Origin: Escherichia phage ECp13
Strand: one strand, 5' to 3'
Length of the DNA stretch: 64,000 nt
Sequence record: PP274704.1
The notes under the pieces were generated by a model. The model was not told the DNA's origin, searched no databases, and worked only from the letters and a program-made list of their open reading frames with translations. The translations under genes were made by a program, and so were the position numbers. The first letter of the stretch is position 1. Each line of letters opens with the position of its first letter. Positions 52,469 to 58,541 of the stretch are shown here, one piece after another.

Positions 52469-52802
52469 AATTTTGGTTTTATGTATAGGATTAATTTCAT
52501 TTTCTGCGTTAGCAGATACATCATATACTGAAATTAGAGAGTATGTAAATCGTACTGCCGCGGATTATTGCGGGAAAAATAAAGCATGCCAAGCTGAATT
52601 TGCACAGAAATTAATATATGCATATAAAGACGGAGAAAGAGATAAATCAAGCAGATATAAAAATGATACATTGTTAAAACGATATGCTAAAAAATGGAAT
52701 ACCTTAGAATGTTCAGTTGCGGAGGAGAAAGATAAAGCCGCTTGTCATTCAATGGTTGACCGTTTGGTAGATTCTTATAATCGAGGATTGAGTACTAGAT
52801 GA
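52461..52802 (+). CDS. small secreted protein (positional equivalent of T4 vs)
   Basis: 113-aa ORF with N-terminal signal peptide and four Cys residues. Confidence 0.55.
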   Translation: MTKILVLCIGLISFSALADTSYTEIREYVNRTAADYCGKNKACQAEFAQKLIYAYKDGERDKSSRYKNDTLLKRYAKKWNTLECSVAEEKDKAACHSMVDRLVDSYNRGLSTR

Positions 52803-53278
52803 TTGTAAAATATATCAAGGGCGATATTGTCGCCCTATTTCTTCAAGGTAATATTATTGCGCACGGGTGTAATTGCTTCCACACAATGGGCTCTGGCGTA
52901 GCGGGTCAATTAGCAAGAGCCTATCCCAAAATTTTAGAAATAGATAAAACTACTACCGAGTACGGTTCTCGCGATAAATTAGGCGATATGTCTGTTGTTT
53001 TTAAACATAGTCCTACGGGATTTGGTATATGCTATAATTTGTATACGCAATACGAACCGGGTCCTAATCTTGATTATGGTGCTTTAGTAAACTGCATGAT
53101 AGAATTAAATCTACAGGCAGAAACCCTTTTGTTTAAACCAGTAATTTACATTCCACGCATAGGTTGCGGTATTGCTGGTGGTGATTGGGACAAGGTTTCT
53201 AAATTAATCGACATGTTTACTCCTGATATTGATTTAATAGTGGTGGATTATGAAAGTACATTACCCGCATCCGTTTGA
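52799..53278 (+). CDS. macro-domain protein (predicted ADP-ribose binding or hydrolase)
   Basis: 159-aa ORF; macro-domain signature elements KGDI..., NIIAHGCNCFHTMGSGVAGQL, IPRIGCGIAGGDW. Confidence 0.65.
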   Translation: MIVKYIKGDIVALFLQGNIIAHGCNCFHTMGSGVAGQLARAYPKILEIDKTTTEYGSRDKLGDMSVVFKHSPTGFGICYNLYTQYEPGPNLDYGALVNCMIELNLQAETLLFKPVIYIPRIGCGIAGGDWDKVSKLIDMFTPDIDLIVVDYESTLPASV

Positions 53279-53462
53279 TCCTAAAAACAGAGTGGAAATT
53301 ATTCGTCAATGGGAACGCATTTGCCGTACTAAATGCCCAATTAATAGTCCACATGATGTAAATAAAGACTATATTGGAACATTCGTTGAATATACCTTTA
53401 TTGATAAGAAAGGTCGTAAACAGCACGTAGAAGAATATTGCTTAAAGGTTACATGGTTATGA
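53250..53462 (+). CDS. hypothetical protein
   Basis: 70-aa ORF overlapping the macro-domain gene 3' end. Confidence 0.45.
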   Translation: MKVHYPHPFDPKNRVEIIRQWERICRTKCPINSPHDVNKDYIGTFVEYTFIDKKGRKQHVEEYCLKVTWL

Positions 53463-53665
53463 GCCAAACTAGTATTCTTAAAAATGCACACTGCGAAAAG
53501 TGTGAATGGCCAGTTGTTTTTGCTTTATGTAATGATGAAATGGCTTGTGATTTCGATTATTGGTGCTATTGTTCTAATAAAGGATGCATCAATCATAAAG
53601 GTGAAGGATTTTATTCGGGATTTTATCCTTATCCTGATTTCGTTAAAGAAGGTAAACCGAAATGA
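53453..53665 (+). CDS. small Cys-rich protein (putative zinc-binding)
   Basis: About 70 aa with 10 Cys (CEKCEW...CNDEMACDFDYWCYCSNKGC); start at 53453 or 53459. Confidence 0.5.
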   Translation: MVMSQTSILKNAHCEKCEWPVVFALCNDEMACDFDYWCYCSNKGCINHKGEGFYSGFYPYPDFVKEGKPK

Positions 53666-53835
53666 ATAGTTTTGAGTTACAATATGAAGTGTTACGTGAA
53701 CTTGATAATTTAATTGAACTCGCTGTTAATAAAGGTTTTGCCATTGGAATCGGTCAAAAAGATACTGATCATTTAACTATGGAAATATTTAAGCAAAAGC
53801 GAATTATTTTAAAACTCCTGGAAATTAATATATGA
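53662..53835 (+). CDS. small hypothetical protein
   Basis: 57-aa ORF (below track cutoff) with ATGA coupling at both ends. Confidence 0.4.
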   Translation: MNSFELQYEVLRELDNLIELAVNKGFAIGIGQKDTDHLTMEIFKQKRIILKLLEINI

Positions 53836-54017
53836 GTCTGAGTAAAGAACAAAAAGATAAATTGTTTGAGCTTATCCATGAACTTCTAGATGAGCATACA
53901 GAAGCAAACACCTTTTATGATGAATACGGTCCGCTATCTCCCGAACAGCAAGAAGAATTTGCTGATCGGTTTGATAAGAAAGAAAATGAATTAATAGCTT
54001 ATGTGAATACGCTTTAA
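53832..54017 (+). CDS. small acidic helical protein (member of a repeated ~60-aa family)
   Basis: 61-aa ORF MSLSKEQKDKLFELIHELL... Confidence 0.5.
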   Translation: MSLSKEQKDKLFELIHELLDEHTEANTFYDEYGPLSPEQQEEFADRFDKKENELIAYVNTL

Positions 54018-54026
54018 GAAGGTGAT

Positions 54027-54608
54027 ATGGCGAGTTTAATTTTTACTTATGCAGCAATGAATGCTGGAAAATCTGCTTCTCTTTTGACTGCTGCGCATAA
54101 TTATAAAGAACGCGGAATGGGTGTATTAGTTCTTAAGCCTGCTATTGATACTCGCGATTCTGTCTGTGAAGTCGTTTCTCGCATTGGAATTAAACAGGAA
54201 GCGAATATTATTACGGATGATATGGATATTTTTGAGTTCTATAAATGGGCTGAAGCACAAAAAGATATTCATTGCGTATTTGTAGATGAAGCTCAGTTTT
54301 TAAAAACTGAACAGGTGCATCAATTAAGCCGAATTGTTGATACATATAATGTTCCTGTTATGGCTTATGGGCTAAGGACCGATTTCGCTGGAAAATTATT
54401 TGAAGGTTCTAAAGAACTTTTGGCGATTGCAGATAAACTTATTGAACTAAAAGCAGTTTGTCATTGCGGTAAAAAAGCGATTATGACAGCTCGATTAATG
54501 GAAGATGGAACACCAGTTAAAGAAGGCAATCAAATCTGTATTGGTGATGAAATTTATGTTTCTTTGTGTAGAAAACATTGGAATGAATTAACTAAAAAGC
54601 TCGGTTAG
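54027..54608 (+). CDS. tk: thymidine kinase
   Basis: 193-aa ORF with P-loop (AMNAGKS) and C-terminal Cys cluster; T4 Tk length. Confidence 0.92.
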   Translation: MASLIFTYAAMNAGKSASLLTAAHNYKERGMGVLVLKPAIDTRDSVCEVVSRIGIKQEANIITDDMDIFEFYKWAEAQKDIHCVFVDEAQFLKTEQVHQLSRIVDTYNVPVMAYGLRTDFAGKLFEGSKELLAIADKLIELKAVCHCGKKAIMTARLMEDGTPVKEGNQICIGDEIYVSLCRKHWNELTKKLG

Positions 54609-54650
54609 TGCAAAAGTTATAAATAGGTTTATCTAACTAAAGGGGTATAT

Positions 54651-54863
54651 ATGCTACAATTAACTGAAAAGCAACTTCGCAATCTTACTGTTCTTCAATT
54701 AGATGAAATTCGTAGGGAAGTTGGAAATATCATTTCAGCTTTGCGTCGAGAAGTATCACTCAACCAATCTCCGGCAGACTATACTAGATTGCGAAATTTT
54801 GAAAAATACCTTGATAAAGTTAAGGCCGTGCATCGGCATAAAGTAAATACAGGACAAAAATGA
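54651..54863 (+). CDS. rI.-1: small protein, positional equivalent of T4 rI.-1
   Basis: 70-aa ORF between tk and rI. Confidence 0.6.
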
Positions 54864-54875
54864 TAGGAGGCCTTT

Positions 54876-55169
54876 ATGGCCTTAAAAGCAACGGCACTAT
54901 TTGCCATGCTAGGATTAGCGTTTGCTTTATCTCCACCAATTGAAGCGAATGTCGATCCTCATTTTGATAAATTTATGGAATCTGGTATTAGACACGTTTA
55001 TATGCTTTTTGAAAATAAAAGCGTAGAATCATCTGAACAGTTCTATAGTTTTATGCGAACGACTTATAAAAATGACCCGTGTTCTTCCGATTTTGAATGT
55101 ATAGAGCGAGGCGCGGAGATGGCACAATCATACGCTAGAATTATGAACATTAAATTGGAGACTGAATGA
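54876..55169 (+). CDS. rI: lysis inhibition regulator RI
   Basis: 97-aa ORF with N-terminal signal-anchor (MALKATALFAMLGLAFALSPPIEA); T4 RI length. Confidence 0.88.
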   Translation: MALKATALFAMLGLAFALSPPIEANVDPHFDKFMESGIRHVYMLFENKSVESSEQFYSFMRTTYKNDPCSSDFECIERGAEMAQSYARIMNIKLETE

Positions 55170-55552
55170 AATTCAGCGACTTTTCACAAAGTGGAAAACC
55201 TTCAAAGGCAGATGAATACTTAGGTTTATTAATGGCTGCACAAGCTTATTTTCATTCTGCACATTTTGAAACTAAAAGTTATGCTAGACACAAAGCATAC
55301 GATTTTATTTTCTCTGAGTTGCCAGATTTGATTGATAAATTTGGTGAGCAATATTTGGGGTATTCTGGTAGAAAATACACGCCTTCTATTCCAGATGCCA
55401 GTAAACTTCCTACCGACACAATTAAAATGATTGATCGCATACTAGACCAATCTAACAGCATTTATAAAGAAATGCCTCCAGCCATTCAAAGCACGATAGA
55501 TGATATTACTGGGATGTTTTACCAGAGTAAATATCTTCTTTCCCTCGAATAA
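55166..55552 (+). CDS. rI.1: hypothetical protein, positional equivalent of T4 rI.1
   Basis: 128-aa ORF overlapping rI stop. Confidence 0.6.
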
Positions 55553-55556
55553 CATT

Positions 55557-55580
55557 AGTCTCCTTCGGGAGACTTTTTTC
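55557..55580 (+). terminator. intrinsic terminator after rI.1
   Basis: AGTCTCC-ttcg-GGAGACT hairpin followed by TTTTTT. Confidence 0.7.
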
Positions 55581-55589
55581 ATTTTACCG

Positions 55590-55619
55590 GTTTACTTTCC
55601 ATTTGAGCTGTGATACTAT
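55590..55619 (+). promoter_or_regulatory. early sigma70-type promoter
   Basis: GTTTAC (55590-55595), 18 bp, TACTAT (55614-55619). Confidence 0.6.
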
Positions 55620-55647
55620 ACAACCATCGGATAAAGAGGAGAACATC

Positions 55648-55836
55648 ATGAAAATTGAAGCACTCAATCAAGAAGGAAATATCTACGTCATCATTAATGG
55701 TGATTTTTTCGTCAACATGGATGAAGTTACTAGTGAAGAACTTGTAGAACTTCTTAAGAAACGCTATAGTATGTGTGATGAAGCTGCGACTCATATGGCG
55801 TGTGCAATATTTTCTCTTTCATATGTGGTGGAATAA
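55648..55836 (+). CDS. small hypothetical protein
   Basis: 62 aa from ATG 55648 (RBS AAGAGGAG). Confidence 0.5.
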
Positions 55837-56018
55837 TGATTAGTATTGAACAAGCAGATAAAATTAAAGAATTGGTAGCTTTAATTCGCAAAGCAGATGA
55901 GGAACGCATTAACTTTGCCTTATCAGGTATTGAAGAATTTGAAGCTAAAGTTGATAATGCTTTAGAAGCGTTAGATATGTTTCTTGATGAAATTATCGAT
56001 CATAATACGAGAGTTTAA
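55836..56018 (+). CDS. small helical protein (repeated ~60-aa family)
   Basis: 60 aa from ATG 55836 (TAATG overlap), [17 protein letters not shown]... Confidence 0.5.
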   Translation: MISIEQADKIKELVALIRKADEERINFALSGIEEFEAKVDNALEALDMFLDEIIDHNTRV

Positions 56019-56020
56019 GT

Positions 56021-56215
56021 ATGCTAACACGTGAACAGTTTGAAAAAATCATTAAATTAGCACGTGATGTTGAAATAGATTCATACCAATTGGCAGTTGA
56101 GCATTGTGAAGGATACTCATACGATGGTATAGAAGCAGCTAAAAAGGATTTGGATAAATCCAAAGCTAAGTTAGTTCAATATCTTGAAATGATTAGGTGG
56201 AATAATGAAAACTGA
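56021..56215 (+). CDS. small helical protein (repeated ~60-aa family)
   Basis: 64-aa ORF MLTREQFEKIIKLARDV... Confidence 0.5.
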   Translation: MLTREQFEKIIKLARDVEIDSYQLAVEHCEGYSYDGIEAAKKDLDKSKAKLVQYLEMIRWNNEN

Positions 56216-56378
56216 AAAGCAGATGTTTTTAATGAAGCTAATTGAAGAATATGCTAATGCAGTTTCTGACTATGAGTATTCTGCTAGGGAAAGAGGTACA
56301 GCTTTCGCAAAGGAAGAAATGAAAATCATGGTTGATGCTCACACAAAGCTTCAGAATTTTATTGAAAACGTCATTTAA
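56205..56378 (+). CDS. small helical protein (repeated ~60-aa family)
   Basis: 57-aa ORF (below track cutoff), MKTEKQMFLMKLIEEYANAV...; RBS AGGTGG. Confidence 0.45.
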   Translation: MKTEKQMFLMKLIEEYANAVSDYEYSARERGTAFAKEEMKIMVDAHTKLQNFIENVI

Positions 56379-56380
56379 TT

Positions 56381-56410
56381 GTTTACAAGTTGGCAAGGTT
56401 ATGGTATAGT
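56381..56410 (+). promoter_or_regulatory. early sigma70-type promoter
   Basis: GTTTAC (56381-56386), 18 bp, TATAGT (56405-56410). Confidence 0.55.
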
Positions 56411-56542
56411 AATCTTGTCAACTGCCAAGGAGAAGAGAATGAAAGTTTTGTTTGTTGTGTATGTGATGATTCAATATAATTATCCAATGTTTACTTATAA
56501 TCTGGTGAACAACATTATTGATATTATTCAAAGGAGTATGTA

Positions 56543-56728
56543 ATGACAAGTGAGCAGGCTTTTAAATTAAGAGAATTAATTGAGATGTATAGTAAAGCTG
56601 TTCATACATCAACAGTTATTGATGAATCAGCTTTCTCTGGATATGCTAACAAGATTAAATATAAAACTCTTATGGAAGAAGCTAAAGTAAATCTTGATTC
56701 TTATATTGAAACTTTAATTGGTGAATAA
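56543..56728 (+). CDS. small helical protein (repeated ~60-aa family)
   Basis: 61-aa ORF MTSEQAFKLRELIEMYSKAV... Confidence 0.5.
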   Translation: MTSEQAFKLRELIEMYSKAVHTSTVIDESAFSGYANKIKYKTLMEEAKVNLDSYIETLIGE

Positions 56729-56729
56729 T

Positions 56730-56996
56730 GTGAGCTTTCCGAAATTAGAAGTAGGTGATTTAGTCTTAACAAAATTGTGGAATGATGCTCAATCAGTAGA
56801 AATCTGCCAATATCGTGGAGCAACAGGTAATTTGATGTACACGATTTATAATCCAGAAATTTTGTTAGAGTGTCATTTGGAACGCTTTATAAAAGACACT
56901 GATAGTATGCCTTATAGTGTATCGATTGTGCGTAAATCTGATACAAAGGAATACTCTAAAATTTTAGAACAAATTTATGTCAGTAAAAAGGATTAA
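56730..56996 (+). CDS. hypothetical protein (non-ATG start)
   Basis: Track ORF from TTG 56718; GTG at 56730 with GGTGA RBS is the likelier start, about 88 aa. Confidence 0.4.
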   Translation: MSFPKLEVGDLVLTKLWNDAQSVEICQYRGATGNLMYTIYNPEILLECHLERFIKDTDSMPYSVSIVRKSDTKEYSKILEQIYVSKKD

Positions 56997-56997
56997 T

Positions 56998-57531
56998 ATG
57001 AAACGATTAGTATTAGAAGTTAGTCCACTTTTTGGCGAATTGGCTATAGAAAAAGTAAATAATATGTATCGTTTGACGCAAGAAGACGATATGCTATATT
57101 TTACGCCCAGTGAAATCATTCATTTAACCCAAATTGAATATCCTTATACTGATAAAATAGTAAGCATTAATGATGAGCACAAAATTCATTTTTATTCTTC
57201 ATGCCCAGGATTTAATATTAAAAGTGAGTCAATGTGTTTATCAGTTATCCATTGGGATAGTTTTATAGATAAGATTAAATATTTTTATTATTCTAATGAA
57301 AGAAAACATAGTTTAAAATGGTTTAAAAATTGCAATGCTATTATTACTAACGCTTGCAATCAGAATGATGAAACTGTTTTAAATGTGTCAAAATGCTATG
57401 AAGATGGAGATGTCTTAACTATTCGTCAAATTGACGATTTTCGATCGCATATTGTCACATTTACCAAAGACGAAGCTATTGCGCTAAAGACTTATCTTGA
57501 TTCTGTCATTCCAACTATGATTTCAAAGTGA
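56998..57531 (+). CDS. hypothetical protein, paralog A
   Basis: 177 aa from ATG 56998 (RBS AAAAGGA); C-terminus ...KDEAIALKTYLDSVIPTMISK. Confidence 0.5.
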   Translation: MKRLVLEVSPLFGELAIEKVNNMYRLTQEDDMLYFTPSEIIHLTQIEYPYTDKIVSINDEHKIHFYSSCPGFNIKSESMCLSVIHWDSFIDKIKYFYYSNERKHSLKWFKNCNAIITNACNQNDETVLNVSKCYEDGDVLTIRQIDDFRSHIVTFTKDEAIALKTYLDSVIPTMISK

Positions 57532-57537
57532 GGAAAT

Positions 57538-58059
57538 ATGTTTATTTCAAGTGGAAGTGGTTTAATTCGCGTTGAATTTAAAAATGACATCTTCTTTATT
57601 CAAGGAGATGATATTATTAAAATGAGTTATGATGAAATTAAGAAAATTTGTAATGCTCTTGAAAATCATGGAAAGGTGAATGCTGTCATTGATATTGGCG
57701 ATTTATGGGTGACACTTTATGAAGTATCCGAAGGATTTAACATTGAAGATGAAAATAACATTTTAGCTATTGATAAAAGAAGTGATTTGTTTGATGTGTT
57801 AAAAGTTTATGAACAGTCAAACGGTGGAAGAAAAGCTGCATTGATTTATCAAAAACCACATTCATGTGGAACTGCTTCAATCATTTCAGATATTGAAGAT
57901 GAAACTGATACTTATATGTGTGTTTTAAAAGCTGGTGGTGACCGTCATCCGGATTTTATTTCTATTCGTCAAAACAATGGAGAAATTTCATTATCAAAAT
58001 CAGAAGCTGAAGCTATGATTAAGTATTTAACAACTGTTACACCTTCAATGAAAGGATGA
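57538..58059 (+). CDS. hypothetical protein, paralog B
   Basis: 173-aa ORF; C-terminus ...KSEAEAMIKYLTTVTPSMKG parallels the upstream ORF. Confidence 0.5.
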   Translation: MFISSGSGLIRVEFKNDIFFIQGDDIIKMSYDEIKKICNALENHGKVNAVIDIGDLWVTLYEVSEGFNIEDENNILAIDKRSDLFDVLKVYEQSNGGRKAALIYQKPHSCGTASIISDIEDETDTYMCVLKAGGDRHPDFISIRQNNGEISLSKSEAEAMIKYLTTVTPSMKG

Positions 58060-58541
58060 TTATAACTATGGTTATTAATGAAAACTCTTGGCACTTTAAA
58101 ATTTACTCGGCATTTAATAGCACATGGAATCGTCCAAAAACGTTATGTGCTTATTTTTGGAAAACGTTTCTCCCGGTATTAGCGGTTTCAATTGTTGGAT
58201 TTGCAACTTTAACAGGTGCTGCAATCATTGGCCAAGAAATTTTAATTAAATTCTTTGTCTTTAGTAGTCTATGGACATTAGTTCCGGCTTCAATTGGTAT
58301 AGGTATTTTAGCATTATCGGTCATGGTTCTTATTGCTGTCGGGGCGGTAATTGGTCCTTCTTGGTTGTTAGACAAATATAACGACCGAAAGCTCAATAAA
58401 GAAATTGAGCTCATTGTACAAAACGAAGAACGAATCAAAAATGGACTTGAGCCTATTCAACCCAAGAAATCTATTATCGTCGAATTTTTAAAAGCGCGTA
58501 AAGCTAAAGTATGTCCTGTTATTGAATATAAGGCTGAATGA
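58056..58541 (+). CDS. membrane protein
   Basis: 161-aa ORF with two or three hydrophobic helices and a charged C-terminal tail. Confidence 0.5.
   Translation: MIITMVINENSWHFKIYSAFNSTWNRPKTLCAYFWKTFLPVLAVSIVGFATLTGAAIIGQEILIKFFVFSSLWTLVPASIGIGILALSVMVLIAVGAVIGPSWLLDKYNDRKLNKEIELIVQNEERIKNGLEPIQPKKSIIVEFLKARKAKVCPVIEYKAE

Follow-up and report, generated by a model that had tools for sequence, protein, structure and literature searches.

Five DUF7438 paralogues on either side of the tk-rI block in the T4-like phage ECp13

The genome of Escherichia phage ECp13 was analysed over a stretch of 64,000 nucleotides (nt) of sequence record PP274704.1, hereafter the window, and this report concerns five small open reading frames (ORFs) in it which, judged by their sequences, are paralogues of one small-protein family, Pfam PF24219 (DUF7438). 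The window belongs to a Tequatrovirus (T4-like) genome; the closest match of the region was Yersinia phage PYPS2T, with 97.8% identity, and 592 T4-like phage records were matched. The five ORFs are all located on the + strand, at the positions where a first-pass annotation of this DNA had placed them, with N-termini identical to those quoted there and lengths of 57-64 amino acids (aa). They form two clusters flanking the tk-rI.1-rI-rI.-1 block, and the tk.2-like paralogue 1 is found directly upstream of tk (Table 1).

Table 1. Genes and candidate promoters around the five DUF7438 ORFs of the window (E, expectation value). T4 counterparts along the + strand were assigned from the T4 annotation together with a blastn alignment.
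Feature	Position	Strand	Basis
vs counterpart	52461	+	T4 comparison
tk.4 counterpart, macro domain	52799-53278	+	Pfam E 1.3e-7
tk.3 counterpart	53250	+	T4 comparison
ORF without T4 counterpart	53450-53665	+	T4 comparison
ORF without T4 counterpart, 57 aa	53662-53835	+	T4 comparison
DUF7438 paralogue 1, tk.2-like, 61 aa	53832..54017	+	Pfam PF24219 E 2.9e-19; phrog_653
tk counterpart	54027	+	T4 comparison
rI.1 counterpart	54651	+	phrog_1826 E 1.6e-37
rI counterpart	54876	+	T4 comparison
rI.-1 counterpart	55166	+	T4 comparison
Candidate early promoter for mobD.5, mobD.4, mobD.3 and mobD.2a	55590..55619	+	Sequence read: GTTTAC(T), 17-nt spacer, TGnTACTAT
mobD.5 counterpart	55648	+	T4 comparison
DUF7438 paralogue 2, mobD.4 orthologue, 60 aa	55836..56018	+	Pfam PF24219 E 6.1e-13
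DUF7438 paralogue 3, mobD.3 orthologue, 64 aa	56021..56215	+	Pfam PF24219 E 1.5e-17
DUF7438 paralogue 4, intact mobD.2a, 57 aa	56205..56378	+	Pfam PF24219 E 3.5e-16; phrog_2758
Sigma-70-like promoter match upstream of mobD.2 and paralogue 5	56382..56410	+	TTTACA, 17-nt spacer, TATAGT, with TG
mobD.2 counterpart, 34-aa ORF	56439	+	T4 comparison
DUF7438 paralogue 5, without T4 counterpart, 61 aa	56543..56728	+	Pfam PF24219 E 1.5e-14; phrog_4859
Phage_tudor ORF, 92 aa	56718-56996	+	PF24144 E 1.5e-38
MobD.1-type gene, first of two	56977-57531	+	Pfam T4_y05I_N and T4_y05I_C
MobD.1-type gene, second of two	57538-58059	+	Pfam T4_y05I_N and T4_y05I_C

Membership of the five ORFs in one family

The PF24219 model matched all five proteins with E values of 3e-19 to 6e-13 and scores of 49.4-69.6 bits, over model positions 1-56/57 of 57; the curated gathering threshold of this family is 25 bits, and T4 Tk.1 and Tk.2 were likewise above it. 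PF24219 includes T4 Tk.1, Tk.2, MobD.3, MobD.4 and MobD.2a, and the five window proteins show no difference from it at the family level. As DUF7438 is already catalogued, the finding of the family is not new. The exact sequences of the five proteins are also present in public databases, some of them labelled 'DUF7438 family protein', and in PHROGs they are distributed over phrog_653, phrog_2758 and phrog_4859. Since the Pfam model probably already holds all five groups, evidence independent of Pfam was sought.

Direct pairwise comparisons with phmmer gave only 4-10 bits between paralogues, which is too weak to decide homology. A database search with an alignment of the five sequences retrieved 118 proteins that fell into exactly five BLAST clusters, one for each window ORF. 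When the profiles of these orthologue groups were compared with hhalign, they matched in register with P values of 3e-4 to 0.27, against P values of at least 0.05 for reversed-profile controls; these matches were mostly non-significant because each orthologue group is shallow. With profiles built by leaving one group out, the omitted ORF was the top non-training match in all five cases (E 4e-6 to 0.044 among 696 ORF segments of the window), and 0-4 of 3000 composition-preserving shuffles reached the real score. In iterative searches, four of the five single-sequence starts gathered all five proteins from a background of about 5,700 other ORF segments, the sole outsider being T4 PseT.1, recruited in one run at the last iteration; the database used comprised the window, the whole T4 genome and other phages, and its enrichment in members found by the family profile is a caveat to this result. 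In-register short DNA similarities persist between copies, and sequences bridging the groups were found. The conserved positions form an N-terminal motif, (S/T)-x-E-Q-x-x-K-(L/I)-x-x-L-(I/V), and a C-terminal one, L-x-x-(Y/F)-(L/I/V)-x-x-(L/I), with weighted column frequencies of 0.87 for E, 0.78 for Q, 0.72 for K, 1.0 for L/I, 0.96 for L and 0.91 for the C-terminal L.

An alternative is that the ORFs are not homologous, either because short amphipathic helices converged on a helix-cap and heptad pattern or because the ORFs are functionless. The pairwise phmmer scores and the hhalign P values of several pairs would be compatible with this idea, the Pfam matches arise partly by construction, and (S/T)-x-x-(E/Q) is a generic N-cap. 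However, the leave-one-group-out, shuffle and iterative tests all showed similarity in excess of composition, and the bridging sequences and the in-register DNA similarities also speak for common descent. Moreover, the other small helical proteins of the neighbourhood (rI.1, the 57-aa ORF at 53662 and mobD.5) did not score to the family, and ratios of non-synonymous to synonymous substitution rates (dN/dS) below 0.5, together with the detection of the proteins, argue against non-functional ORFs. We regard a lack of homology as extremely unlikely. The first-pass annotation had proposed that a single small-protein scaffold was duplicated repeatedly and diversified, and this is borne out by five orthologue groups of one Pfam family with shared size and in-register DNA similarity, and also by a variable copy number in related phages and one confident helical-hairpin model.

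The ORF at 54651 had been put forward as a possible sixth member under the name rI.-1. It is instead the counterpart of rI.1, and its membership was rejected: it had no Pfam DUF7438 match, its hhalign P was 0.35, and it was missing from the match lists of the family profile even to E = 10 and E = 5. Profile searches of the ORFs of the 64-kb window identified no further DUF7438 member beyond the five.

Two labels in circulation were also discarded. The name 'helicase loader', carried by phrog_4859, by several RefSeq phages and by some GenBank records, does not fit the ORF at 56543, which had no Pfam, NCBIfam or PDB-sequence match to loaders; in T4 the helicase loader is gp59, a protein of 217 aa whose gene lies elsewhere. 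The name 'molybdopterin-guanine dinucleotide biosynthesis protein MobD', which many records carry, found no backing in any MobA/MobB-type Pfam or NCBIfam match, and most likely stems from the T4 gene symbol mobD, which designates a homing endonuclease. Both misleading product names are spreading through databases and are now exposed. Searches of PDB chain sequences, PADLOC and NCBIfam with the family gave no match.

Gene order and neighbouring genes

The DUF7438 genes of the second cluster are closely packed. The ATG of the mobD.4 orthologue shares bases with the stop codon of mobD.5 (TAATG), the start of paralogue 4 runs 11 nt into the 3' end of paralogue 3, and the ATG of paralogue 5 shares bases with the stop codon of the 34-aa mobD.2 ORF. 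In T4, a transcript from a promoter upstream of mobD.5 has been reported (PMC1702504); for the window we infer that the motif at 55590..55619 is likely the corresponding early promoter. A terminator-like hairpin was detected by a terminator scan at 55557-55574, 5' of this candidate. The sigma-70-like motif upstream of mobD.2 and paralogue 5 tops the consensus scan, with 10/12 positions; it is no more than a match to the consensus, and the number of similar matches in the region did not exceed that in shuffles.

The Phage_tudor ORF, which is not present in T4, overlaps the 3' end of paralogue 5 and seems to have arrived together with this extra DUF7438 copy. It is followed by the two MobD.1-type genes, which are adjacent paralogues that have diverged to 27% identity (E 2e-9). 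T4 has a single MobD.1-type copy and then the mobD homing endonuclease, and the window is without that endonuclease.

On the other side of the region, the tk.4 orthologue lies just upstream of the first DUF7438 cluster. In T4, tk.4 is AdfM, an anti-DarTG2 factor (named in a 2025 preprint), and nrdC.1, located on the same genome arm, is an anti-Septu factor. Tk.4/AdfM and NrdC.1 have an early, dispensable and variable neighbourhood in common with the DUF7438 genes, but they belong to unrelated folds and families, Tk.4 being a macro domain.

Copy number, allele exchange and selection

In T4 the DUF7438 set consists of Tk.1, Tk.2, MobD.4, MobD.3 and MobD.2a, the last of which is split by a frameshift in NC_000866. 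The window differs from T4 in that Tk.1 is missing, MobD.2a is intact and an additional copy is present at 56543. In NC_000866 mobD.2a is annotated with 38 aa and extends over two frames (T4 57996-58177), both fragments of which match the family profile. As the gene is intact in the window (57 aa) and also in another sequenced T4 stock (174 nt in the HIDEN-SEQ annotation), NC_000866 must carry a frameshift or a sequencing error.

A scan of the whole T4 genome revealed no other clear DUF7438 member, PseT.1 being borderline only. This 75-aa protein (pseT.1, T4 134908-135135) has a DUF7438-like N-terminus, MISWHQFEHLKGLI, and the C-terminus LHDYIQSLV; its profile E was 0.012 and its hhalign P 0.05, with no Pfam match and the single late recruitment in the iterative searches. 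PseT.1 could be a remote relative whose loop is longer.

The T4 gene tk.1, a DUF7438 member, is replaced in the window (53438-53835) by two unrelated ORFs, one encoding a Cys-rich Phage_zn_bind protein (PF23895, E 3.5e-29) and the other being the 57-aa ORF (phrog_3452). Paralogue 1, which comes next, is 69% identical in nt to T4 tk.2; precisely where tk begins, identity to T4 rises from 69% to 96.6%, a step that marks a mosaic junction. At the protein level paralogue 1 shares 54% identity with T4 Tk.2 and 90-92% with Dhakavirus alleles. That a Tk.2 allele close to Dhakavirus, and not to T4, adjoins tk in a block with 96.6% nt identity to T4 indicates an exchange of alleles between genera.

Paralogue 2 shares 97% aa identity with T4 MobD.4, paralogue 3 shares 95% with T4 MobD.3, and paralogue 5 shares 95% with its PYPS2T orthologue, the T4 nucleotide alignment ending within paralogue 5, at 56554. 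Values of dN/dS were 0.08-0.26 for paralogue 1, 0.11 for paralogue 2 against MobD.4, about 0.3 for paralogue 3 against its Dhakavirus orthologue, and 0.08-0.5 for orthologues overall. These substitution ratios indicate that the DUF7438 genes are under purifying selection.

Across Tevenvirinae the copy number ranges from 1 to 6, with gain, loss and allele exchange. Among the tk neighbourhoods of seven other phages that were sampled, that of a Mosigvirus-like phage contained two copies, those of Dhakavirus contained two or three, and a single copy was present in that of Jiaodavirus; no DUF7438 member was detected in those of Gualtarvirus, Krischvirus and Pseudotevenvirus. Only 28 clusters emerged when 1.84 billion representative proteins were searched exhaustively with the profile, and a few remote single copies were found in small-ORF arrays of metagenomic phage contigs with 37-64% GC.

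This genome context bears on the idea that the proteins act within the phage, as accessory hairpin subunits that tune thymidine kinase, the deoxynucleoside triphosphate synthesis complex or the rI/rI.1/rI.-1 lysis-inhibition module. In support of such a role, a member immediately precedes tk, with an overlap or a gap of no more than about 10 nt, in Tequatrovirus, the Mosigvirus-like phage, Dhakavirus and Jiaodavirus, in one Dhakavirus case with a homing endonuclease between the member and tk. The second cluster comes after rI.-1, and accessory roles in lysis inhibition have been reported for rI.1 and rI.-1 (PMC2962797). Nevertheless, synteny is maintained throughout T4-like genomes, which makes adjacency weak evidence, and the wide variation in copy number and alleles next to a tk that is 99-100% identical would be unexpected for a fixed subunit. 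In addition, the remote members are single copies in unrelated phage contigs where the gene calls include no tk or rI family, and the three genera without a detected member nearby do have tk and rI. We consider a phage-internal function unlikely.

Predicted structure and possible role

Each of the proteins is about 60 aa long, cytoplasmic and acidic, and contains 19-22 large hydrophobic residues. The AlphaFold2 model of paralogue 1, obtained with the family alignment, is an antiparallel two-helix hairpin with helices at residues 5-32 and 37-60 and a predicted local distance difference test (pLDDT) score of 92, and BFVD models of family members superpose at template modelling (TM) scores of 0.7-0.8. 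The model of the MobD.3-like paralogue 3, made from a shallow group-only alignment, is also all-helical, at a pLDDT of 56. The helicity anticipated in the first-pass annotation therefore agrees with both models, with the reservation that the second one, being of low confidence, gives no independent confirmation of the hairpin. In the modelled hairpin the N- and C-terminal motif segments would pack together. Conservation was stronger in the termini-proximal half than in the loop half (entropy 1.91 vs 2.37, Mann-Whitney p 0.0014), and between the window protein and T4 Tk.2 identity was 70% in the former and 28% in the latter. The two-helix hairpin, as modelled, is a generic fold that is uninformative about function.

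The structural matches reflect this generic character. The best Foldseek match in the PDB was the helical hairpin of the HK853 DHp domain, from a histidine kinase, with 23-25% identity over about 60 columns; this match was non-significant (E 0.19, TM about 0.48), and no HisKA Pfam match was found at an E limit of 1. A link of DUF7438 to two-component signalling, including hairpin kinase inhibitors of the Sda type, is speculation. Rop, the ColE1 repressor of primer and a helical-hairpin dimer, appeared among more than 1,500 generic matches. A relationship to it was rejected, since DUF7438 showed no sequence similarity to Rop (hhalign probability 0.2%) and no Pfam Rop match at the same E limit. 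The same results count against a role as Rop-like regulators, in which dimers of hairpins, as four-helix bundles, would bind structured RNA and modulate interactions of early mRNAs or small RNAs; moreover, the net charges of -8 (paralogue 2, MobD.4-like) and -10 (paralogue 1, Tk.2-like) would be unfavourable for binding RNA, and this possibility appears very improbable to us.

Small size and acidity are features of known phage DNA mimics. The charges of these two paralogues, and that of T4 Tk.1 (-10), in small proteins made early, are what would be expected if the most acidic members mimicked DNA and blocked host DNA-binding proteins such as nucleoid proteins, restriction enzymes or RecBCD, which is a specific version of the host-inhibitor idea. 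On the other hand, the other three window proteins have net charges of only -2 to -3, and the structure matches include no solved DNA mimic, and we judge this mechanism improbable.

The explanation that we favour, with a probability of roughly 0.4, is that the DUF7438 proteins are partly redundant early accessory proteins that bind and modulate host or anti-phage defence proteins, each paralogue with its own specificity. The first-pass annotation had likened the family to phage inhibitors of host proteins, which is plausible and fits the early expression, the dispensability and the neighbourhood with known anti-defence genes. According to data in the supplement of PMC9697503, T4 MobD.3 and MobD.4 have early RNA and early protein, and Tk.1 and Tk.2 early RNA and middle protein. 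The genes tk.1, tk.2, mobD.2a, mobD.3 and mobD.4 are all listed as non-essential in supplement file 7 of a T4 transposon library study (bioRxiv 10.1101/2025.11.20.689424), and the nrdC.11-mobD.3 stretch can be deleted (PMC9825161). Besides early expression, this dispensability of single genes on the laboratory host, the variable copy number and the anti-defence neighbourhood are the support for a host-directed role.

Several observations weigh against this explanation. None of the DUF7438 members has a recorded target, interaction, toxicity or conditional phenotype; in HIDEN-SEQ these genes had q = 1.0 in one comparison table (supplement file 7), and the main text of that preprint does not mention them. 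With an average dN/dS below 1 there is no indication of an arms race, the presence of a member directly upstream of tk in four genera could instead mean a phage-internal role, the N-terminal motif includes (S/T)-x-x-(E/Q), with which helices are commonly capped, and the MobD.3-like model is of low confidence. In the literature searched, no paper names DUF7438 and the T4 orthologues appear in main texts only within lists; in the supplement text of the CRISPRi-ART preprint they are not among the genes listed.

The DUF7438 proteins are probably binding modules and not enzymes. The roughly 20 large hydrophobic residues per 60 aa, arranged in a wide a/d/e hydrophobic stripe, would exceed what a lone hairpin can bury; given this surplus of hydrophobic surface, the hairpin probably packs against another hairpin or against target helices, giving either a homo- or heterodimeric four-helix bundle or a docked complex. 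The conserved termini-proximal half may represent the shared scaffold or interface, and the loop-proximal half, variable in sequence and length, would set specificity. Redundancy between copies, together with host specificity, would then account for the lack of single-gene phenotypes.

A more detailed version, which we hold to be doubtful, is that of modular hairpin inhibitors, in which the conserved base dimerises or docks, and each copy is redirected to a host or defence protein of its own by a tip that changes fast and recombines. If true, T-even phages would carry one to six interchangeable copies as a redundant counter-defence kit, making single knock-outs silent.

T4 is the best-studied large lytic phage, and yet about half of its genes are without a function. 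Single-gene screens may overlook DUF7438 because of its redundancy. New host-takeover or counter-defence activities may reasonably be sought in a family that is present in five to six copies, expressed early, maintained by purifying selection and swapped between genera, and whose genome arm also encodes AdfM and the anti-Septu factor NrdC.1.

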